Source: Candidatus Sigynarchaeum calidifontis
GTDB lineage: Archaea; Asgardarchaeota; Lokiarchaeia; Sigyniarchaeales; Sigyniarchaeaceae
DNA length: 29,965 bases
Direction: 5' to 3'
Assembly: GCA_030587475.2 (NCBI GenBank)
Contig: JAUQYZ020000177.1
Coordinates: 1 to 29,965, forward strand
This document shows positions 19,356 through 29,965 of this stretch, in pieces (the stretch's first letter is position 1; each line of letters opens with the position of its first letter). The notes under the pieces are model-generated. The model searched no databases, was not told the origin of the DNA, and saw only the letters and a list, made by a program, of their open reading frames with translations. The position numbers and the translations under genes are program-made.

Positions 19356-21824
19356 CTACGGCATCAAGTTGATGTTTGCGCAGTTCTGGGACACGTGCAC
19401 CTTGGCTGCGGCGAGCGGCGACCCGTCGACCGTGACGGCCGCGGTGGCAGCACCAGCGCCAAGGCCGAGCGAAACGAAATCCAGGTTCCCGTCGTGGATC
19501 GCGATCACGGGAGTCGTGCCGGTCGAGCGCGTGATCCACGTCATCCCGTCGATGACAAGCGACGAGAGATCCCGCGCGAGCACCTGCACGGGCGTCGATT
19601 GCGTCGCGTTGAAGTGAAGCGAAGCGTGTTCGCCCGTCACGGCGAATGTTTTACCTCGATACGCGACACGCAGCGGAACAGTAACAGAAAACCCTTGCCG
19701 GCGCACCACGTGCAGCTCGGCTTGCCCGCCAGGGTGTTCGACTAGGATAACGCTCGCGGGCCTGTTCGTGGCGACGCCATCGTACGATACCCCGCCGATC
19801 GTGAACGGTAACGACGTGACGTTGATACCCACGCTGGTCTCGTGCGGGTACAAGACGGCGAACCACGCCCCGGGCCCGTCCATCTGCCCGATATAGCGGT
19901 AGGTCGTGCATTTTTCGATCACGTTGTAATCCCGGCTCCACCAGCCGAATGGGTGGCCGTATATTGAAGAATCGCCGCCGGAGATGGCCTGCACGCCCGT
20001 CCACGGGCCGAACCCGTACGTGGCGAGGTTGCCGTCAGCAAAATTCGTTTTCATGCAATAATCGTTGCCGACCGGCGTCGTGCCGGGGATGGGTGCCGAC
20101 GCGCTGTCGATGCGCGCCGGGGCATGGAGTGGCAGCTGCCAGAGCACCTCGACCTTGTGGCTGCCGCTACCGTGCCAGAAGTCCGTGGCGATCCAGTACC
20201 GCGATTGATCCGTGGAACCCGATTGGTTCGACAAGATATGAGCCGGATCGTTGCGGAAGTTCACGAACGTGAACTCGCGCTCGGCCAGGGCGCAAAATGC
20301 CGAATGCCACGCCCGCGCGGACGAGCCCGTGCTGCCGCCAGCCCAACCGTGACCAGCAGCGTCTACGAGATACAAATCCTTGCCGTCGACGAGGAACACG
20401 TTGTGCGCGAAAGCACTGCGGAGATAGAGCGACATCTCGTCCGTCGTGTATCTGTACCGGCCCGGGTCGATCAAGAGTCTGCGGCCGAATGCATAGGCCA
20501 TCACGTTGCAGAGATCGTTGTTCTGGTGATAGCCGAAACCAAAGGGGCCGCCATCGAAAAACGAGAACAATGCATCCGGGTCGTTCCAGGACGTGCGGGA
20601 AATGAAGATGCCCGAACTCTCGAAACCCACGTTTAAACGCGGTGGTGGGTTGGACGGGATGACGTTGCCATTGTTATCGAAGTAATCGATCTCCGGGTCT
20701 CCATCATACAGTCTGGAAGCGAAACCGATCAAGCCTTTGCTTGATTCAACGTCTGCATGGCCGTAGGTCGTTACATAGCCGTCAGGCATCGTGTTGTGGA
20801 TCAAAAACACGGACATCTTGCGTCCAGCGTCCAGCAATTTCTGGGGGGCGTTCAAGAAATCGTATGCACGATCCAGATCAATGGCATCCAATACATCACC
20901 CGTCATTACCATGTGATATTCGATACTCTGCTCGTTGGTGCCGCCATCAGGGTACATGGAAAAGCGAACACTTCGATCAAGGCTCGACCAAGCAGCGTCC
21001 ATCCACGGCCGGATCGCAGTGATTTCTGGCAGGAATGACGAGAGCAATAGCAAGCCGGTCATCTCGATGAAGGCCCAGTTCGTGGTGACCTTGTGGAAAT
21101 CGTAGAGAAATTGGCCATGATCGACGAGGCTGGACAGGAATCGATAGCAAAATTCGGGTGTAAACGCGCGAGTCGCCTTGATCAGGTCGAACGCGCGTAT
21201 CAAGATGCCGATGCGGATTGCCGAATCGATCGTGCGCCATGTAAACGCCGCGCCGACGGGTTCGTCATCCAGGAACATGGTATAAACGTCGACGAGAGCT
21301 TCGGCATAATATTCGGCGGTTTCATTGTCAGCGAGGTCGAGATATCCCCGCGATGTTGCTGCAAGCGTCCACATCCACGCGAAACGGTTCACTTGCCACG
21401 TCCATTCTAAATCCTCCTCCCCGGGGGGCACTGCGTGAAAATTTACCCCGCGAACCATGCGACCGTTCACTAGTCGATCTCCCGTGCCGAGGTTGTGCGT
21501 GATGCCGTTGATAGTAAAATCGCGAGCTATACACTTGTCCGCCTCGGCCCGGGCACCAATCCACCCGCCGAGAGGATACATGGGCGGCCATGCCCGGGCT
21601 ACGAACCACGCGTGGAGGGCTATCTTGGCGCCCGTGACGTTCCCGGCGTCCAGCTGCAGCTTCACGGGGGCAAGCTCCGGCCGCGAGTAGTCCAGCAATG
21701 CAAAAAGGTCATCTCCGGCCAGCGTCCCGTTCCCGACGTCCAGGAACGGGATGACGAGCCCGGTGCAAATCCCGACGAGGATCACGATCGCCGGCAGGTG
21801 TTTCTTGATGTCCTTTGCACGCAA
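19356..21824 (-). CDS. Heparinase II/III-family polysaccharide lyase (PL12-like), N-terminally membrane anchored
   Basis: EWTWQVNR, WRTIDSAIR, NWAFIE, PDGGTNEQSIEYH, SRTSW, GPFGFGYH, LIDPGRYRY and AHNVFLVDG. TTG 21824 (RAKDIKKH + hydrophobic helix) avoids overlap with the upstream gene. Confidence 0.88.
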   Translation of the reverse strand: MRAKDIKKHLPAIVILVGICTGLVIPFLDVGNGTLAGDDLFALLDYSRPELAPVKLQLDAGNVTGAKIALHAWFVARAWPPMYPLGGWIGARAEADKCIARDFTINGITHNLGTGDRLVNGRMVRGVNFHAVPPGEEDLEWTWQVNRFAWMWTLAATSRGYLDLADNETAEYYAEALVDVYTMFLDDEPVGAAFTWRTIDSAIRIGILIRAFDLIKATRAFTPEFCYRFLSSLVDHGQFLYDFHKVTTNWAFIEMTGLLLLSSFLPEITAIRPWMDAAWSSLDRSVRFSMYPDGGTNEQSIEYHMVMTGDVLDAIDLDRAYDFLNAPQKLLDAGRKMSVFLIHNTMPDGYVTTYGHADVESSKGLIGFASRLYDGDPEIDYFDNNGNVIPSNPPPRLNVGFESSGIFISRTSWNDPDALFSFFDGGPFGFGYHQNNDLCNVMAYAFGRRLLIDPGRYRYTTDEMSLYLRSAFAHNVFLVDGKDLYLVDAAGHGWAGGSTGSSARAWHSAFCALAEREFTFVNFRNDPAHILSNQSGSTDQSRYWIATDFWHGSGSHKVEVLWQLPLHAPARIDSASAPIPGTTPVGNDYCMKTNFADGNLATYGFGPWTGVQAISGGDSSIYGHPFGWWSRDYNVIEKCTTYRYIGQMDGPGAWFAVLYPHETSVGINVTSLPFTIGGVSYDGVATNRPASVILVEHPGGQAELHVVRRQGFSVTVPLRVAYRGKTFAVTGEHASLHFNATQSTPVQVLARDLSSLVIDGMTWITRSTGTTPVIAIHDGNLDFVSLGLGAGAATAAVTVDGSPLAAAKVHVSQNCANINLMP

Positions 21825-21838
21825 GTGGTGCCAACCCC

Positions 21839-22750
21839 TTATTCGAAGCCAATCTTGAATTCCTTGAGCATGGCGATCAAGTTGTGCACGCACTTTGCCG
21901 CGTCGTTGAATTTGTTATCACCATGGACGTGTGGCTCTACCGAGAGAATGCCATCAAAGCCCTTTTCGACGAACCACGGCAGCACTTCTTTCCATGGCAC
22001 CATGCCCGTGCCGAAGACGGCGGCCTTGCTCCCGAAAAGCTTTTTCAAGATGCCCTTCGTGAGTAGCCCTTTCTTCCTGAATATTCGATCCTTGACGTGG
22101 AAATACTCGATATGGGGAAAGAGCTTGTCAAAGTCGTCGCGCGTGAAGACGCCGGCATGACTAATGAAGTTTGCGAGGTCGAGATTTGCTTTCAAGTTTG
22201 GCGATTTGAAATGATCGAATAACCGCAAGTACGTCGCCGTGTCGCCGACCAGCGTGTCGCCCTCGCATTCGACGACCATGACCTTCTTTGCAGCTTCGCA
22301 CTTCTCGACAAGCCTGGCATAGTCTTCGAAGAGCATCTGCCAGTATTTTTCGGTCAATTTCTTCGGGATCGTGAAGTTGAAATAAGAATACGTGACGATG
22401 AACTTCGTGTCGAATTCTTTCGCGCAGCGAATTGCGTCATCGATCCTGCCCACGTTGAACGGGTGGTCACGGTTCATTATTTTCGATCCTGGTTTTGTTA
22501 ATTTCGTGCCCGTTGGGATGACCTTCATGATCTGGGTCTGGATGGATCCGATCTTGATGCCCCGCGTATCGAGTGTTTCGTGGAGCTTCGCGATCTCGGC
22601 CTCGTTCAAGTCGAGGATGGATTTTCCCCAGAGATACGCTATCTCGATGTACTTGACGCCTTCCTTGGCGCAAACTTCATCCAGGACGGCCTCAAAACCC
22701 TTGCCTTCGACGTAAAAATCGTTCGGAATCAACGCAACCTTGACAGCCAT
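21839..22750 (-). CDS. Sugar phosphate isomerase/epimerase (xylose-isomerase-like / AP-endonuclease-2 TIM barrel)
   Basis: Metal ligands in VVECE, NLDLAN, FHVKD, G-x-G-x-VPW and LSVEPH. Confidence 0.88.
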   Translation of the reverse strand: MAVKVALIPNDFYVEGKGFEAVLDEVCAKEGVKYIEIAYLWGKSILDLNEAEIAKLHETLDTRGIKIGSIQTQIMKVIPTGTKLTKPGSKIMNRDHPFNVGRIDDAIRCAKEFDTKFIVTYSYFNFTIPKKLTEKYWQMLFEDYARLVEKCEAAKKVMVVECEGDTLVGDTATYLRLFDHFKSPNLKANLDLANFISHAGVFTRDDFDKLFPHIEYFHVKDRIFRKKGLLTKGILKKLFGSKAAVFGTGMVPWKEVLPWFVEKGFDGILSVEPHVHGDNKFNDAAKCVHNLIAMLKEFKIGFE

Positions 22751-22774
22751 GAATTCACGGTCACGCCAGGCAGT

Positions 22775-22783
22775 AATAAGTAT
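22775..22783 (-). promoter_or_regulatory. TATA-like element ATACTTATT
   Basis: Ends 25 nt before ATG 22750. Confidence 0.55.
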
Positions 22784-22850
22784 TGCCAGTAGGTGGCCCC
22801 CTCCAAGTTTAGTTGAAATCTTTCATTGCGTAGGATCAAGTGAGCGACCG

Positions 22851-24260
22851 ATGGAAGGAAGCGGGCGGGGCGTGCTGCGGCGGGCGTGGGTCTTGCTGTG
22901 GTGGAACGCGAGCGTCTCGTTCCTGGTTTCCGCGGAATTCATCAACTTGCTCGTCATGTCCTACAAGATCTGGCCCGGAGAGCCTTTTCACGCGCTCGAG
23001 ATGGGCGGGCTCATCACTGCAAGGCTATGGATGGACGGGATCGCGGCCGTTCTTTTATGGGGCCCGTTGGCAGACCGCTTCGACCGGCGCAAGCTGCACA
23101 TGTTCAACAGCGCGGTGACCGGCTCGCTCGTTCTGGTCAATGCTTTCCTCCCCATTGGCGGCGGTTTCTCGTCCTATTACGCATGGCTCGCCCTCCGGAT
23201 GGTGATCGGCGGGTTCATGAGCGGCGGCGGCCCCCTCGGCAATTCGCTGAGCAGCGACATCGCCAAGTCCGGGGAAAAATCGCAATATTTCGGGTACTCC
23301 TCTATCGTGTGGCAAGTCGTGCAGATCGGCAGCATGATCTTGAGCGCCTTCATGTTCTCGACGGGGGAGCTGTGGCGCCTCTTCTTCGTGATTTCCGCGG
23401 GGATGTTTTTCGGCATGACTTTTTTCCTCGGTTTTTTCTTCAAGGAGCCGGCCCGCGCGGCGACTCACGATTCCTTCACCAAGATCCTCGGGAACACGGC
23501 TGGCGTTAAATACAACTACCGGCTCACGCGGGACACGGTCAAGGACACGATCTTCCGCCCCACGAACATCCTTGCCTTCAGCGAGGGTATTTTCACGAGC
23601 ATTCTCTTCGGCATCATCGATCTCATTTGGCTACCCTACATCCAATCTCCACCGCGTAATATTTCCCCCGTCGCCACGAGCCTCTTCATGTTGGTCTACG
23701 GGGTGCCCGGCGCCATCCTCGGATCCTACGTGTTTGCCAAGATCTCCGATAAATACGGCGCCAAGCGGTTGCGTAACCGCGTTCTCATCATCGCGTCCTC
23801 GCTGCTCGGGTCTGTCGTGCTCATCCTCACAGCCTTCTCGCTCCCTTTACCGACTTTTACCCCGGAGGAGGGCGCCGACATCTCGATGTTGTTTGCATAC
23901 CCGGTCTTCGCCGTGTTCGGCGCGCTCATGCTCGTCATGCGCGCCACGTTCAGCATCTTCGGGGTCAACCAGCCCCCGATCCTGCAAGAGATCAACCTGC
24001 CCGAGGCGCAGGGCCAGATCGCGTCGCTCGGCCAGCTCGTCGAGATCTTCTCGTATGGCTCTGGCCCGCTGCTCGCCGGTGCCGTGCTCGTGGCCTTCTC
24101 GTACGAGTACCAGGCGGCCATCCAGGTCGTTTCGCTCGTCGCCATGCCGGGCATTTGCATGTGGTTCCTCGCGGTGATCTGGGTCGAAAAGGACCAGGCC
24201 CGCATCAAGCGCATCGTCGAAGCACGAGCCAAGGAGCTCAAGAGCCGGGTAGGGCAATAA
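22851..24260 (+). CDS. MFS transporter
   Basis: Motif A WGPLADRFDRRK, LRMVIG and a second repeat ISDKYG; about 12 TM. ATG 22851 avoids overlap with the divergent gene. Confidence 0.9.
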   Translation: MEGSGRGVLRRAWVLLWWNASVSFLVSAEFINLLVMSYKIWPGEPFHALEMGGLITARLWMDGIAAVLLWGPLADRFDRRKLHMFNSAVTGSLVLVNAFLPIGGGFSSYYAWLALRMVIGGFMSGGGPLGNSLSSDIAKSGEKSQYFGYSSIVWQVVQIGSMILSAFMFSTGELWRLFFVISAGMFFGMTFFLGFFFKEPARAATHDSFTKILGNTAGVKYNYRLTRDTVKDTIFRPTNILAFSEGIFTSILFGIIDLIWLPYIQSPPRNISPVATSLFMLVYGVPGAILGSYVFAKISDKYGAKRLRNRVLIIASSLLGSVVLILTAFSLPLPTFTPEEGADISMLFAYPVFAVFGALMLVMRATFSIFGVNQPPILQEINLPEAQGQIASLGQLVEIFSYGSGPLLAGAVLVAFSYEYQAAIQVVSLVAMPGICMWFLAVIWVEKDQARIKRIVEARAKELKSRVGQ

Positions 24261-24295
24261 TATGGTCAGGGACGTATTGATTTTCTTGACAACCA

Positions 24296-25699
24296 ATGGA
24301 TGATATCGAGATATCTAAGCTATGCGAGAGCGGCGAGGCTGGCGGCCGGATCGGCATGAAGGAGAAACTCGCCTACTTCTCCGTAAACATCGGGAACATC
24401 CCGATCATGACCTTGATCAGTAGCTTCTTGCTCATCTTCTATACTGACATCGCCGGGCTCGATCCTGCATCGGTGGCGACCATGTTCATCGTCACGAGGG
24501 TGCTGGATGGCATCAACGATCCCCTTATGGGGTACATAGTCGATCACCTCCCGAATACCAAGTGGGGCCGGTTCCGGCCTTACATCGTCATCGGTACCAT
24601 CATTTGCGGGTTGAACTATCTCCTCCTCTGGCTCGGGCCGAGCATGGCAACATCTAACAAGCTCGCCATTGCCTACGTGTCGTACATCTTGATCGGCATA
24701 ACGTTCGACTTGATGGACGTCCCGCTGAATTCCCTCATCCCCGTGATGAGCGCGAACGAGAAAGAGCGCGGCACGCTGGCGGTGATCAAGAGCTTGGGGT
24801 ACGGGATTGGCGGGGTCTTGTTCACGATCCCGATCGTCCCGCTCGTGCTGGCGTTTCCCACGCAACAACTTGGCTATCATGCCGTGATCATCATCGCGGT
24901 CGCGTTCACGATAGGATTCAGCGCCATCGGGACCGCGGGGATCAAGGAGCGGGTCAAGCCCGCCATCAAGGAGCGATATAATGTTAAAGATTTTTTCAAG
25001 ATATTCGCCTTGACACCTGTACTTGGCCTTTTTTTTACGAGCCTGCTCGGGAGCATAGCCGGGGCATCGACCAGCGCGTCAGCCATGTATTACTTTACCT
25101 ACGTCGTGGAGAATTCGTCTTTGTTCCCGATTTTCGCAATCATCACGGTTCTTTTTGGCGGGGTGGGGTTTTTTCTCGCCATCTACTTGATCCGCAAGCT
25201 CGGAAACAAGAGCATCTGGTTATATGGCACGATATTCACGATCATCCCGGTCATCCCCGTGCTCTTCATTCCCCCCGCCGAGACGTGGTGGGCACTTTTT
25301 TTCCTTGGCGTGAGCCGGATCGGTGCTGGTTTTGCCGGGGTCGTGAATTACGCGATGCAAGCCGACTTGATGGATTATGTCGAATGGAAACGGGGCTTCA
25401 GGTCCGAGGGCGCCATCGCGTCCACGTTCTCCTTCATCGTGAAGGCCGGCATGGGCATCGGGGCGGCGATCCCGGGGTATATCTTCGCCGCCACGGGGTA
25501 CGTCCCGGACCTGCACCCCCAAGCACCGCTCGCCATCCTCGGCATCAACGTAGCGTTCATCGGGTTCCCGCTGGTCCTCACGATCGTGTCAGTGTTTTGC
25601 ATGCTGTTCTTGTATCCCATCACCAAGACGGTAAGCAAGCAGGTCCAGGCAGACCTGGCCAAGAAGCGAGAGGGGGCAAGAAACGTGTCGTTCTCCTGA
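24296..25699 (+). CDS. Glycoside-pentoside-hexuronide (GPH/MelB-like) cation symporter
   Basis: FLLIFYTD, RVLDGINDPLMGYIVD, TKWGRFRPY, ADLMDYVEWKRGFRSEG and YPIT. Confidence 0.93.
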   Translation: MDDIEISKLCESGEAGGRIGMKEKLAYFSVNIGNIPIMTLISSFLLIFYTDIAGLDPASVATMFIVTRVLDGINDPLMGYIVDHLPNTKWGRFRPYIVIGTIICGLNYLLLWLGPSMATSNKLAIAYVSYILIGITFDLMDVPLNSLIPVMSANEKERGTLAVIKSLGYGIGGVLFTIPIVPLVLAFPTQQLGYHAVIIIAVAFTIGFSAIGTAGIKERVKPAIKERYNVKDFFKIFALTPVLGLFFTSLLGSIAGASTSASAMYYFTYVVENSSLFPIFAIITVLFGGVGFFLAIYLIRKLGNKSIWLYGTIFTIIPVIPVLFIPPAETWWALFFLGVSRIGAGFAGVVNYAMQADLMDYVEWKRGFRSEGAIASTFSFIVKAGMGIGAAIPGYIFAATGYVPDLHPQAPLAILGINVAFIGFPLVLTIVSVFCMLFLYPITKTVSKQVQADLAKKREGARNVSFS

Positions 25700-25774
25700 A
25701 CAGCGGCATGTCATGATCCAGCCGGTGCAAGCCGAACATGCGCGCTGCCGTCCGACTTCTGGTTGAATAAATCC

Positions 25775-25784
25775 GAGTTTAAAA
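25775..25784 (+). promoter_or_regulatory. TATA box
   Basis: GAGTTTAAAA about 24 nt before ATG 25807. Confidence 0.55.
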
Positions 25785-25806
25785 CGACCGCGAACTAGGG
25801 AAGATT

Positions 25807-27621
25807 ATGGAGTTGTACATGCGGAAAGCATCGTCATTTTGTACCGTCGCGTGCCTGGCGCTCTTGGCTTGCTTGGCAATCTTCTCGTCCTCGGTGAACA
25901 CACGTGACGGCCAGCCCAGCAACATGATGGCTGCAAACACGAACCAAAGTCTCCTTGATCCTTCCGGGATAGACATCTACGGGTACAACGTTTTCTGGTT
26001 CTTGCACGTGACCGATTCGCAAGAATGCTGGTTATACGGGGCAGCGGCAAAGGATCCGCGCCTTTCGCACCAGTATTTCTTGCTGTTGAACGAGACTGCC
26101 CGCGTGATCGCGCCCGAGTTCGTCGTCAACACGGGTGATCTCGTGAACACGAACGACAACAACATCCTTGCCGACAATCTCGGCCAGGACGACATCGAAT
26201 GGGCAATGTACCGGAACGCGACCGACTCGGCCGGTGCGAACTTGTCCTGGTATATCGACCTCACGGGAAACCATGACCAGTATGGAGACCCGGGGATGCC
26301 TCACTACCTAGCCAACTCGGTGCTCGGCCGCGAGACTGGGCAATACCACCACGCATGGAACGTGAACACGAGCGCGGGCAAGTACCGCTTTGTGGGGTTA
26401 AAGAGCACGGAAGGAGACGGCGTGGATTACCAATTCGCGGTGTTCGGGATCATCAACCGGGCGGAAATGGATTATTACGAGGGTGCGTTAAAAGGTGGCG
26501 TCGGCTCGCCGGTCACGTTCCTCCTCCAGCACCACCCCCCCTACAACTTCGTCGCCGAGCCAGCGAGCTCGGGGCGAACCTTCGAGTCACTCGCCAATGA
26601 TTACGGCGTCGACGTGCTCTTGTGCGGCCATAACCACGTGGAAAGCATCGATTACATGCCACAAGCGAACGGAATCCGGGCGATACAGACGCCCGCGTTC
26701 CACAAGGGTCGCGGGACGTACCGGATCGTGGCGGTGGACCGGGGTGCCTTGTCGTCCGAACTGGGTCTCGTGGGCCAGTGGCCACAAGGGCTCATAACGA
26801 GCCCGATCGCGTCCGACCACGTGTACGGCGATTATCTCGAAACCCCGCACGCCCCTCCTAGCGCCGTTCGCGTGCTCGCGTGGGATGCGGCGGGCGTGAC
26901 CGGCGTGCAGGTGCGGATCGATGGTGGCTCGTGGCAAAATGCCATGCAAGTGGCCGGTCCCTTGTGGGAGCTCGTGTTAACGGGGAGCGTGCCAGCCAAG
27001 ATGCATGTCGAAGCGCGCATCGCGGGAGCGTCGGGCGTGAAGGTCGTCTCGATCGACTACGATGCCAACGCGACGCCCGGCTGGACGTGGTTCCACACGA
27101 TGCTGCTTCTCTATGCGGGGGTGCCAGCATTCATCGGCGTGTGCATCGCGTTCACGCTCGTGCGCAGGTTCAAGAATCCCGCGAAATATGGCAAGGCGGA
27201 AAACAAGCGGGTTGACCGGGGCAAGCTCAAGCTGTTCTTGATCTTCTGCGCGATTTTCGTGGCAGTACCGCTGGTTATGGGCAACATGTTCGGCGATCCG
27301 ACCCTCTTGTTTGCCCTGGGTTTCGTCCGGCTCCGGACGCTATCGACGCACTTCACGTGGCTTCTATTTTCCATCACGGGCGTTCATTTCTTGGTGTCAA
27401 TCCTCCCGGTCGGCTGCACGCTGTCCAAAGAACACTGGCACAAGAACATCGTTGCCAATGGCATTTCCATGGCATTCACCGGGCTGCTATTCGTCCTGGT
27501 CAACTGCATCTATCCTGGCATTGCCTTGATCGCGCCCGGCTGGTACATGATGCTCGCTTGCAATGTCTTGTTCATAAAACATTCCAAGCAGATGGAGAGA
27601 TCGCTGAAAAACGGGTCGTGA
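25807..27621 (+). CDS. TMEM62-like membrane metallophosphoesterase (calcineurin-like domain, Ig-like domain, C-terminal TM bundle)
   Basis: VTDSQ, TGDL, GNHD, QHH and CGHNH motifs, with TMEM62-type flanks (NVFWFL, QDDIEW, YRIVAVD, WPQGLITSP, VRVLAW, RIDG, VAGP). Signal/anchor helix and about 5 C-terminal helices. Confidence 0.85.
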   Translation: MELYMRKASSFCTVACLALLACLAIFSSSVNTRDGQPSNMMAANTNQSLLDPSGIDIYGYNVFWFLHVTDSQECWLYGAAAKDPRLSHQYFLLLNETARVIAPEFVVNTGDLVNTNDNNILADNLGQDDIEWAMYRNATDSAGANLSWYIDLTGNHDQYGDPGMPHYLANSVLGRETGQYHHAWNVNTSAGKYRFVGLKSTEGDGVDYQFAVFGIINRAEMDYYEGALKGGVGSPVTFLLQHHPPYNFVAEPASSGRTFESLANDYGVDVLLCGHNHVESIDYMPQANGIRAIQTPAFHKGRGTYRIVAVDRGALSSELGLVGQWPQGLITSPIASDHVYGDYLETPHAPPSAVRVLAWDAAGVTGVQVRIDGGSWQNAMQVAGPLWELVLTGSVPAKMHVEARIAGASGVKVVSIDYDANATPGWTWFHTMLLLYAGVPAFIGVCIAFTLVRRFKNPAKYGKAENKRVDRGKLKLFLIFCAIFVAVPLVMGNMFGDPTLLFALGFVRLRTLSTHFTWLLFSITGVHFLVSILPVGCTLSKEHWHKNIVANGISMAFTGLLFVLVNCIYPGIALIAPGWYMMLACNVLFIKHSKQMERSLKNGS

Positions 27622-27705
27622 TAGATCGACTCTTTTGATTTTTATCGAAAATTTCATGTAAAATAATTCGAGCGAATAAACGTTAACGATTTGCACGTGT
27701 TTCTC

Positions 27706-29073
27706 TTACGACATTTTTTTCAATGTCTCCTTGAAAATGTCGTACATGTATCTACCATATAATGCATCGAAAGAAAAAAACTTTTCATAACCCCCTTCCA
27801 CGTAGAAATTCCACGGGTAAATATAGCCGCATGTTTCATTCATCTGGGAAAATATATATTTGCCAGAAGGGACATGCTTGAATATATTCTCCTGATACGT
27901 GATGAAGGGCTCCCCCGGGCTCGAAAACCAGTACACGTCGTTGATGCGCGCCACGAATAGCTCCGTTTGGTGATACGTGCGGCGGCCATTCGTGACGATG
28001 TTAAGCATGGGGAGGTACCTGCCGTTGAGAAACCGGTAGAAGTCGTGGAATAACCCGACCCGCAGCATGTCCCTGAACTCGCGCAGCAAGATGCGGCCCT
28101 TGTCCTTGACCCTGGGGTAATGCTTGAGGCGTCCCCAGACAGACTTCACGCGGCCGATCCGGGGAAAGATGAACCGCCGCCGGACGTCGACGGATATCAC
28201 GGGCTCGACCGGCACGGTGTCGATGGCATTAGTGACAAGATCGGCGAACCGTTTCCCGAGATCGTCGACCACCTTGAGCGCGTAGGCCATGGCATCCTCG
28301 TGCGTCGCGTGGTGGTGATAGCGCGCGGCATAGTACCCCTTGTACCCGTGGATGGTCACGTCGCCAGCTGCGCCGTTAAAATAGGCAGCGAACTTCAAGT
28401 CTGGATACCGGGCATATAACGCTTTTGCAACCATGCCCGGGTACTCGGGATGGACGTTCGCGTTGTTACCTGGAAGCTGTGTCGGGTGGGCCTGGTAGTT
28501 CACAATAATGCCGACCAGCTTCCCTTGTTTATCTGTAACCTTGAGGAAGCGAATCGGGTCGGTGATGGGCTTGTACGGAGGCCGGCGCTGGATCGCTAGG
28601 AATGGCTCAGGGATTGCTGTCGTTCCGTAGCCCACCATCGCCTCGGTCGCATCATTGAACGCGTTCACGCCTGCCCGGATCATGTGGCGCATGATATACC
28701 TGATAACGTCGTATTGAACATCGAACGTGAGCAGATTGGCGAGCCGGTTTGGGAAAATGCCGATCGTGTCCGGAGACGAGTGGCTGTGCGTGAAGTGGAG
28801 GATGATGCGGGACACGGGCACCCCCGTCCTGCGTGAAATCGCACGCCGCACGAGGCGGGCGATTCGATACTGGAATCCAACGAGATCGACCGAGATGATG
28901 ATGAGACTCCGCGCCGGGTCATCGGGGTGCCGGAAACATATCGCCCGGGCGAATAAAAAATCCAGCACCTTCTCCGACACCTTGTGGAGCCGGATGTAAC
29001 CGCCCACGCGCACGTCGAGGTCGAGCGGCGGCGTGATGTTCGTCGTGGCGAACCCGATACGATATGCGCACAT
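27706..29073 (-). CDS. Neutral/alkaline ceramidase-like metal-dependent amidohydrolase
   Basis: GFATTNITPP...GGY, D-x-LFARA, ISVDL, THSHSSP, NYQAHPT, FNGAAGDV, PGEPF and GGYE. Start placed at MCAY (29073), with TTTATC 24 nt upstream; no signal peptide. Confidence 0.85.
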   Translation of the reverse strand: MCAYRIGFATTNITPPLDLDVRVGGYIRLHKVSEKVLDFLFARAICFRHPDDPARSLIIISVDLVGFQYRIARLVRRAISRRTGVPVSRIILHFTHSHSSPDTIGIFPNRLANLLTFDVQYDVIRYIMRHMIRAGVNAFNDATEAMVGYGTTAIPEPFLAIQRRPPYKPITDPIRFLKVTDKQGKLVGIIVNYQAHPTQLPGNNANVHPEYPGMVAKALYARYPDLKFAAYFNGAAGDVTIHGYKGYYAARYHHHATHEDAMAYALKVVDDLGKRFADLVTNAIDTVPVEPVISVDVRRRFIFPRIGRVKSVWGRLKHYPRVKDKGRILLREFRDMLRVGLFHDFYRFLNGRYLPMLNIVTNGRRTYHQTELFVARINDVYWFSSPGEPFITYQENIFKHVPSGKYIFSQMNETCGYIYPWNFYVEGGYEKFFSFDALYGRYMYDIFKETLKKMS

Positions 29074-29143
29074 CAAGCATTTCCAGCCATCGACGAGATA
29101 AAAGCCCAGCGTGCAAACGATGAATATTGCAGAATACAACCAT

Positions 29144-29326
29144 TCAACAAACGAGCGGGAATCCGCATTTCTTGCACGTGGTTTCGAGCTTGTCGTACCA
29201 GCGGTAGCAATGCACGCATTGGAGCCGGCCGCAAGAAGGACAAGCATAGTTCACGGGACGTTTCCCGCAAGCTGGGCACGTGCTGCTCGGCTCGTTCCTT
29301 GGCCGCTTCTTTCCCAACTTCATCAT
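29144..29326 (-). CDS. 60-aa C4C4 RING-like zinc-finger protein
   Basis: C-x2-C-x8-C-x2-C-x4-C-x2-C-x10-C-x2-C with a basic N-terminus. It fills an otherwise empty gap between genes. Confidence 0.7.
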   Translation of the reverse strand: MMKLGKKRPRNEPSSTCPACGKRPVNYACPSCGRLQCVHCYRWYDKLETTCKKCGFPLVC

Positions 29327-29353
29327 CGCTCCGCACTACAATCCGTCGCATCC

Positions 29354-29361
29354 TTTATCAA
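29354..29361. promoter_or_regulatory. TATA-like element between divergent genes
   Basis: TTTATC ends 25 nt before ATG 29384 and lies about 28 nt from the divergent ATG 29326. Confidence 0.45.
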
Positions 29362-29383
29362 ACTGATGGACATACAATCCATC

Positions 29384-29965
29384 ATGGTAGAGGTTAACGG
29401 CATTAATATCACCAAGCACGAGTTCAAGGTCGGGACCAAGCAGATGTTCTTGCTGGCTGGTGAATGCCATTATTTCCGCATCAAGCCGGAAGAATGGAAC
29501 GACCGGCTAGGCCAGTTGAAGGAAATGGGTGCCAACGCGGTGAGCACGTATGTCCCGTGGAACTGGCACGAGGAATACAAGGGACGGTTCGATTTCAGCT
29601 CGCCAGAGAAGGACCTGAACGCGTTCTTGGAAGCTTGCGAGCTGTACCGGTTCAAGGTGCTCATCCGGCCTGGTCCTTGGATATGCAGCGAGTGGCACAA
29701 CGGGGGCATTCCTGGCTGGTTGTTCGACGAGCACCCGGAGATCTTGTGCACGAACGACGAGGGCAAGACCTCCCCGTGGAACACGCTGAAATCCCCTCCC
29801 GTTTCGTACCTCCACCCGGTCTACCTGGATCATGTCAAGAAGTGGTACACGGCCGTCGTCCCGATCATCAAGGCTCACGAGCACCCGCGGGGTGGCATCA
29901 ATCTCGTGCAACACGACAACGAGATATCATTCGGGTTCAACAAGTGGCTCTGGTCGGTCGACTAT
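29384..29965 (+). CDS. Glycoside hydrolase family 35 (beta-galactosidase-like), 3'-truncated by window edge; absent from the ORF track
   Basis: Translated by hand: MVEVNG...LAGECHYFRI..EEWNDRL..LKEMGANAVSTYVPWNWHE...RPGPWICSEWHNGGIPGWL...LVQHDNE (acid/base Glu). Confidence 0.93.
   Translation, partial: MVEVNGINITKHEFKVGTKQMFLLAGECHYFRIKPEEWNDRLGQLKEMGANAVSTYVPWNWHEEYKGRFDFSSPEKDLNAFLEACELYRFKVLIRPGPWICSEWHNGGIPGWLFDEHPEILCTNDEGKTSPWNTLKSPPVSYLHPVYLDHVKKWYTAVVPIIKAHEHPRGGINLVQHDNEISFGFNKWLWSVDY

Follow-up and report, generated by a model that had tools for sequence, protein, structure and literature searches.

Does an Asgard archaeon encode a full-length counterpart of the eukaryotic orphan protein TMEM62, and, if so, how is that counterpart related to the eukaryotic protein and what might it do? 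The question is raised by an open reading frame (ORF) near the end of a 29,965-nucleotide contig of Candidatus Sigynarchaeum calidifontis (JAUQYZ020000177.1; the whole stretch was analyzed and is referred to here as the window), whose 604-residue product we call P0001. An earlier note on this DNA had described the product as an archaeal TMEM62 homologue and candidate eukaryotic signature protein, and had suggested that its gene neighbourhood could point to the TMEM62 substrate. A literature search found no paper linking TMEM62 with archaea or Asgard archaea, or reporting a biochemical function for TMEM62. We consider it probable that P0001 is an intact, active, membrane-embedded metallophosphoesterase (MPE) that belongs to the TMEM62 family in the broad sense and represents a paralogue, hereafter clade A, of the TMEM62 lineage.

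Domain Organization of P0001

From its ATG to the stop codon, the ORF is uninterrupted over 604 codons, and its start is consistent with homologues that show 73% identity to P0001, whose nearest relatives are proteins from Asgard metagenome-assembled genomes (MAGs). We modelled P0001 with AlphaFold2 from an alignment of 19 full-length relatives and obtained a mean predicted local distance difference test score (pLDDT) of 82 and a predicted template modelling score (pTM) of 0.76. Pfam assigned Metallophos (PF00149, calcineurin-like phosphoesterase) to residues 65-278 (E = 5.4e-9); NCBIfam, equivalogs and subfamilies included, gave no match above cut-off. The model has a disordered linker between an N-terminal helix (residues 11-26) and the MPE domain, and, beyond the immunoglobulin (Ig)-like domain, five transmembrane (TM) helices at residues 428-456, 471-486, 518-536, 541-568 and 577-603, with a four-stranded β-meander at 490-516 between TM2 and TM3. 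The signal or anchor segment, MPE domain, Ig-like domain and TM bundle that the earlier note had seen in the 604 residues are therefore borne out by the ORF, Pfam and the model alike (Table 1).

Basic residues of P0001 lie before helix 1, in the loops 457-470 and 537-540, and at the C-terminus. From this placement and the positive-inside rule, we infer an N-in start, with the catalytic and Ig domains on the extracytoplasmic side and the β-meander facing outward as well. Two N-x-S/T sequons, at N95 (26089-26097) and N144 (26236-26244), are kept in 16 of the 19 clade A sequences, which would fit a catalytic domain that is extracytoplasmic and may be N-glycosylated.

Homology of P0001 to Eukaryotic TMEM62

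A phmmer search of 1.8 billion representatives returned 526 matches to P0001, among which animal TMEM62 proteins appeared at E values around 1e-18 (Frankliniella XP_026280776.1, Holothuria and Nymphon). In a BLASTP comparison, macaque TMEM62 (P0220) aligned collinearly with residues 61-389 of P0001 at 26% identity over 338 aa (E = 9e-27). The human TMEM62 motifs that the earlier note had paired with the archaeal sequence were found almost verbatim in the macaque protein, where the segments NIFWGLQISD, ETIDIIQPALVLATGDL, LDIKGNHD, FGILDKKKM, YRIFAFDHDLFS, WPVVLITNP, IRVLAF..VKIDG and HVSGP align to the ORF in the same order. When the profile of the archaeal group was compared with that of 30 animal TMEM62 sequences, the alignment was collinear from 57-598 to 50-627 with a probability of 100%. 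Furthermore, at least 30 positions that are invariant in clade A are common to clade A and animal TMEM62; W64, P103, Q127, E131, W132 and Y135, and then Y305-R306, D311, P326, T331, P333, R355 and L357, show little or no variation in the 30 animal sequences either. The similarity between P0001 and TMEM62 is well above chance and extends past the generic MPE motifs.

Eukaryotic TMEM62 (643 aa) combines PF00149 Metallophos, PF24384 Ig_TMM62 and PF24394 TMEM62_C, and P0001 has the same three domains in the same order, as well as family-specific residues beyond the MPE motifs. The two proteins differ in that motif I reads D-I-H in TMEM62 and D-S-Q in P0001, identity is only about 26% in the MPE and Ig region, and P0001 falls in a separate, Asgard-only clade. 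We compared individual domains by hhalign and paired each test with reversed-sequence controls. The Ig region (clade profile, residues 322-424) matched animal TMEM62 with a probability of 99.3% and E = 1.4e-20, compared with 0.2 for the reversed control.

The membrane domain was linked to TMEM62 in two ways. First, profiles connect it through clade B, a second Asgard group described below: the clade B and animal membrane domains matched at E = 2e-10 (reversed controls, 0.03-0.04), and the clade A and clade B membrane domains matched at E = 5.3e-5 over 111 columns (reversed control, 7e-3). A hidden Markov model (HMM) of animal TMEM62_C detected clade B (P0052, E = 3e-8) and not clade A. Second, the top ESM Atlas fold match of the P0001 model was a eukaryotic "Transmembrane protein 62" cluster (TM-score 0.72, 530 residues over 55-604), and residues 425-604 alone had chordate TMEM62_C clusters as their best match (TM-score 0.68, 178 aa aligned), followed by unrelated small membrane proteins at 0.52-0.54. 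The AlphaFold2 model of macaque TMEM62 (pLDDT 88.7) shows the order TM1-TM2-4β-TM3-TM4-TM5, identical to that of the P0001 model, and two archaeal prolines that are invariant or nearly so, P488 and P577, fall in the alignment on P497 (30/30) and P606 (27/30) of animal TMEM62. The modelled TM bundle of P0001 thus has the TMEM62_C fold. Note that a PF24394 search of 400 Asgard genomes yielded only sub-threshold noise, so that this Pfam model is unusable for mapping the TMEM62 family in archaea.

All three domains of P0001 are homologous to those of eukaryotic TMEM62, the membrane-domain homology being a fold-level relationship plus a transitive profile link and not a direct sequence similarity. 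A generic CpdA/Icc identity was rejected because the homology continues through the Ig and TM domains, which upholds the view of P0001 as a full-length archaeal TMEM62 homologue; CpdA, Icc and GpdQ are class III phosphodiesterases with a stand-alone MPE domain of about 250-300 aa, whereas P0001 has two more conserved domains and resembles them only in structure. In a sequence search of the PDB, P0001 gave marginal purple acid phosphatase matches only, and macaque TMEM62 gave none.

Phylogenetic Placement of Clade A and Clade B

Trees were built on the MPE and Ig region with FastTree (176 sequences), with IQ-TREE under a quick LG+C20 posterior mean site frequency (PMSF) model (69 sequences), and with IQ-TREE under LG+F+G4 with 1000 ultrafast bootstraps (UFBoot). 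Together with all-against-all BLAST, they resolved four groups. Clade A contains P0001, has the motif I pattern D-[ST]-Q and is Asgard-only. Clade B consists of Asgard proteins of about 620-655 aa with multiple TM helices and D-x-H in motif I. Clade E comprises eukaryotic TMEM62 from animals, Capsaspora, Paraphelidium and Radiomyces. In group O are MPE and Ig proteins whose tails are of bacterial type (Big, cadherin, PKD or fn3, or else one TM helix), including one Deltaproteobacteria protein and some Asgard proteins. Clades B and E were united with a UFBoot of 100 and a Shimodaira-Hasegawa-like approximate likelihood ratio test (SH-aLRT) value, in the PMSF tree, of 100; clade A with its short forms received 100 and 99, and group O 98 and 97, respectively. 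The FastTree analysis of 176 sequences recovered the same three clades A, B and E. Clade B and eukaryotic TMEM62 are sister groups.

Clade B proteins (e.g., P0052, P0100, L023 and L024) share their architecture and phylum with P0001 and differ from it in keeping D-x-H and GNHE. P0052 was annotated from a Promethearchaeota MAG, and gene order on clade B contigs is compact and prokaryotic, with neighbours typical of Asgard archaea, for instance an EAP30/ESCRT-II-like gene. Clade B genes are present in four Asgard genomes from the order to which the window belongs (G019, G023, G027 and G179); three of these (G019, G023 and G027), along with assembly GCA_054386635.1, have clade A as well. In the window's genome, which is 89% complete, we found the clade A gene only and no clade B gene. 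Because the two clades coexist in several genomes, P0001 is most likely a paralogue rather than an orthologue, namely a divergent and ancient Asgard-only paralogue of the TMEM62 lineage.

The earlier note's view can be put more strongly: P0001 would be the Asgard orthologue of eukaryotic TMEM62, itself a eukaryotic signature protein, and its gene context would report the TMEM62 substrate. We regard this as unlikely. The three domains are indeed common to P0001 and TMEM62 and collinear, the Atlas clusters nearest to P0001 by language-model features are eukaryotic (Parabasalia, 0.95-0.96), and an approximately unbiased (AU) test did not reject a tree uniting eukaryotes with clade A (delta log-likelihood 20.5, p = 0.17). 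However, clades B and E grouped at a support of 100 in three methods, and clade B outscored clade A in BLAST against eukaryotes (120-200 versus 80-148 bits). Clade B and eukaryotes also have D-x-H in common; the animal TMEM62_C HMM and Pfam Ig_TMM62 match clade B members and not clade A members; the two clades coexist in single genomes; and database matches of clade B proteins, after their own clade, are insect TMEM62 proteins and not clade A. The expectation that the eukaryotic clade would group with Asgard sequences was hence correct, except that its partner is clade B and not the clade of P0001.

Asgard archaea carry two full-length subfamilies of a three-domain membrane enzyme, one of them sister to the eukaryotic clade, and the proteins that Asgard archaea specifically have in common with eukaryotes thereby gain a membrane enzyme. 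The better proxy for eukaryotic TMEM62 would be the clade B genes, which lie outside the window. P0001 is of value in that it defines an Asgard-only D-x-Q branch, a natural active-site variant that could help to reveal the chemistry of the family.

Nested in clade A is a short form, about 460-480 aa in length, that has the MPE and Ig domains, one TM helix and D-[ST]-Q (L008-L020, e.g., L008:6179-7618). It is common in one Asgard genus, in which 14 of 54 genomes were matched, and its membrane bundle appears to have been lost secondarily.

Active Site and the D-x-Q Motif

Predicted metal ligands of P0001 are D70 and Q72, D111, N155 and H156, H242, and H275 and H277. All 19 aligned full-length clade A sequences, which span 26-73% identity to P0001, have D70 and Q72 (motif I), G110-D111 (II), G154-N155-H156-D157 (III), H242 (IV) and G274-H275 (V), and 18 of them have H277. 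The unusual D-S-Q in place of D-x-H, already pointed out in the earlier note, is thus a property of the whole clade; the position of Q72 is occupied by His in 30/30 animal TMEM62 sequences and by Gln in 19/19 clade A sequences. The invariant Gln within an otherwise intact ligand set argues for D-x-Q being a functional variant and not a sign of decay.

It is also conceivable, though improbable, that proteins with D-x-Q are pseudo-enzymes that have lost catalysis and act in binding or as scaffolds at the cell surface, given that the canonical motif I His, a metal-1 ligand, is replaced. Some proteins of the MPE fold, such as Vps29, are non-catalytic. Against this stands the invariance or near-invariance of D70, D111, N155, H156, H242, H275 and H277 over the divergent clade A set, and the invariant Gln itself implies selection on Gln. 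Moreover, the ADPRibase-Mn-like family shows activity with a motif I of D[V/I]Q, and in an ADP-ribose docking model of ADPRibase-Mn (a homology model on 2NXF), metal 1 is coordinated by the carbonyl of Gln27 (PMC4334965).

ADPRibase-Mn resembles P0001 in its MPE fold and in D-x-Q, and 2NXF stood at rank 22 of the Foldseek matches of P0001 in the PDB. It differs from P0001 in being a soluble, cytosolic protein of about 340 aa without Ig or TM domains, and its family is further characterized by s2s3 and h7h8 regions of its own. Since the PDB sequence search gave no match of P0001 to 2NXF-type chains, and hence no specific sequence relationship, the D-x-Q motif of the two is probably convergent. 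The nearest solved folds of the catalytic domain in the Foldseek search were those of Rv0805, GpdQ, purple acid phosphatases and SMPDL3A/B (E = 1e-8 to 1e-6, TM-score by target 0.5-0.7, 12-17% identity). These are dinuclear phosphodiesterases, some of which act on lipid head groups, and unlike P0001 none has the Ig_TMM62 and TM-bundle extension; no solved structure in the PDB was matched beyond the MPE domain.

Distribution of the Three-Domain Architecture

A D-[ST]-Q pattern scan of 185,579 prokaryotic species, with one genome per species, yielded 21 confirmed loci, all of them Asgard by record names (Promethearchaeota/Lokiarchaeia and Thor-, Hermod- and Hodarchaeota). Among the best 150 of the 526 phmmer matches, a C-terminal bundle of at least four hydrophobic segments was seen in clades A, B and E only. 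In the Atlas, whole-length matches to P0001 were all eukaryotic, and bacterial clusters matched residues 56-434 only. In the sampled sets, the three-domain architecture occurs in Asgard archaea and eukaryotes only. The earlier note had asked whether the architecture is widespread in bacteria; this is so for the two-domain MPE and Ig_TMM62 module, which carries other C-terminal tails there, but the three-domain form was not seen in the bacterial sequences sampled.

Conserved throughout eukaryotes and without a solved structure, TMEM62 itself was represented here by sequences from animals, Capsaspora, aphelids and mucoromycete fungi; Atlas clusters also derive from plants and Parabasalia. Parabasalia have large TMEM62-like families, with ESM Atlas clusters of 390, 107 and 61 members.

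That the likeness to TMEM62 is confined to the MPE and Ig module, with the membrane tail an independent, convergent anchor on an ordinary prokaryotic surface phosphoesterase, is very unlikely: the many bacterial module proteins whose tail is cadherin, PKD, Big or fn3 or just one TM helix, the single-TM forms nested in clade A and the lack of direct sequence similarity between the P0001 TM domain and animal TMEM62_C would fit it, but TMEM62_C is the best Atlas fold match of the TM domain alone, the unusual four-stranded β-meander between TM2 and TM3 is present in both models, the conserved prolines coincide, and the profile links from clade A through clade B to clade E exceed their controls.

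Predicted Function

The reading of P0001 as an active membrane MPE and paralogue of the TMEM62 lineage has to be weighed against several results that count against it. At E ≤ 1, neither Pfam PF24384 (Ig_TMM62) nor PF24394 (TMEM62_C) matched P0001. Direct profile-profile comparison of the clade A membrane domain with animal TMEM62_C gave P = 0.06, within the range of the controls (0.05-0.15), and the link between the clade A and clade B membrane domains is moderate, at a probability of 67%. The AU test left the tree uniting eukaryotes with clade A standing, and the clade groups were defined after the data and the tree had been seen. Since the tree is unrooted, the view of clade A as a paralogue sharing the TM bundle by descent rests on architecture parsimony. 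The bacterial sampling for the three-domain form consisted of the best 150 of the 526 phmmer matches plus Atlas clusters of at least 50 members and was not systematic. Finally, no neighbouring gene is conserved among the loci compared, as described in the next section.

Under the favoured reading, a signal or anchor helix would be followed by an extracytoplasmic, dinuclear-metal MPE domain and an Ig sandwich, mounted on the five-helix bundle. P0001 is predicted to be an active ecto-phosphodiesterase or pyrophosphatase that hydrolyzes phosphate esters or anhydrides on the outer membrane face. The TM bundle with its β-meander may position the catalytic domain on a membrane- or glycan-linked substrate, or deliver such a substrate to it. 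The Gln72 side-chain carbonyl would bind metal 1 as Gln27 does in the ADPRibase-Mn model, and by this analogy the coordination suggests a Mn2+-type pyrophosphatase chemistry. A possible setting is the processing of a lipid- or glycan-linked substrate in glycoconjugate breakdown; the gene lies in a cluster for the uptake and breakdown of glycans and glycoconjugates (19356-29965).

A broader scenario can be offered only tentatively. The TMEM62 architecture may have arisen in Asgard archaea and been duplicated into a D-x-H and a D-x-Q form, of which eukaryotes took the D-x-H form at eukaryogenesis; the D-x-Q form would then be a Mn-type, outer-face pyrophosphatase or phosphodiesterase acting on lipid- or glycan-linked phosphate in glycoconjugate scavenging. 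If an Asgard origin and inheritance of D-x-H are true, TMEM62 would be an overlooked eukaryotic signature protein, and the D-x-Q form would offer a tractable prokaryotic route to TMEM62 biochemistry. Prokaryotic versions are intron-free and lend themselves to expression, structure determination and substrate screening.

Gene Neighbourhood

Coordinates of the gene, its domains and the neighbouring genes are given in Table 1.

Table 1. Features of the TMEM62-like gene and other genes in the window.
Feature	Position	Strand	Basis or remark
TMEM62-like membrane metallophosphoesterase, full coding sequence (P0001)	25807..27621	+	open from ATG to stop
Signal peptide or signal anchor (helix, residues 8-26), with R6 and K7 ahead of it	25828..25884	+	hydropathy peak; model helix 11-26 of low confidence
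MPE domain, residues 55-320	25969..26766	+	Pfam PF00149; AlphaFold2 fold
Motif I codons D70-S71-Q72, D-x-Q in place of the usual D-x-H	26014..26022	+	clade alignment
Ig-like β-sandwich, residues 327-419	26785..27063	+	model β-strands; hhalign against animal TMEM62
C-terminal membrane domain, residues 428-603, TMEM62_C-like fold	27088..27615	+	AlphaFold2 model, Atlas fold match, profile links
Predicted protein, 873 aa	6306-8927	+	no Pfam family at E ≤ 1e-3
Predicted protein, 633 aa	8965-10866	-	no Pfam family at E ≤ 1e-3
Heparinase II/III-like	19356-21893	-	
Xylose-isomerase-like TIM barrel	21839-22750	-	
MFS_1 transporter	22740-24260	+	
GPH/MFS_2 sugar symporter	24296-25699	+	Pfam PF13347, E = 8e-79
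Neutral-ceramidase-like hydrolase, convergent, 513 aa	27706-29247	-	Pfam PF04734, E = 2.2e-8
GH35 β-galactosidase	from ~29111, past the window end	+	

The MFS_1 and GPH symporter genes are separated by 35 bp, and the GPH symporter gene and the TMEM62-like gene by 107 bp, all on the same strand; judging from this spacing, co-transcription of the symporter gene with the TMEM62-like gene is possible. The gene order of the window was kept only in a relative of the same genus. When 16 clade A and B loci were compared over ±5 kb by BLASTP at 1e-6, no neighbour was conserved. Three families recurred, each in two loci: the GPH transporter in the window and at L038, a clade B locus; the ceramidase-like protein in the window and at L005; and a BNR sialidase-like protein at L005 and L038. 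In 7 of the 12 clade A loci, glycoside hydrolase or sugar (sugar-acid) genes, including fucosidase, GH20, GH127, GH57, GxGYxYP and UxaC genes, are found within about 5 kb, and in five, lipid-related genes (CDP-archaeol synthase, VTT/DedA, PAP2 and ceramidase-like) adjoin the clade A gene.

These neighbourhoods share a loose theme of glycan and lipid catabolism and no operon, and cannot identify the substrate. Inference of a substrate from context is weak because no neighbour is conserved across loci; the hope that the neighbourhood would point to the TMEM62 substrate was therefore abandoned other than as a weak lead.

For the ceramidase-like protein of the window, the match to the neutral/alkaline ceramidase model is confined to the N-terminal half and, at 33.6 bits, is just above the cut-off of 32.1. 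Its homologue in L005 (22% identity) is encoded 2.5 kb from the clade A gene, beside a fucosidase gene and the BNR sialidase-like gene. On the metagenomic contig L043, a PAP2 lipid-phosphate phosphatase gene (L043:4826-5935) lies 66 bp upstream of the clade A gene (L043:6001-7905) on the same strand, and GH57 and MFS_2 genes are found nearby. Membrane proteins with a VTT/DedA domain are encoded next to a clade A gene (L002:9729-10706) and, at a distance of two genes, near a clade B gene (L039:5093-6001). The clade A gene of L035, whose contig was assigned to Sigynarchaeota, is some 5 kb away from small GTPase genes of the Arf/Ras-like and Gtr1/RagA-like kinds (L035:8291-10021), which represent typical Asgard content.

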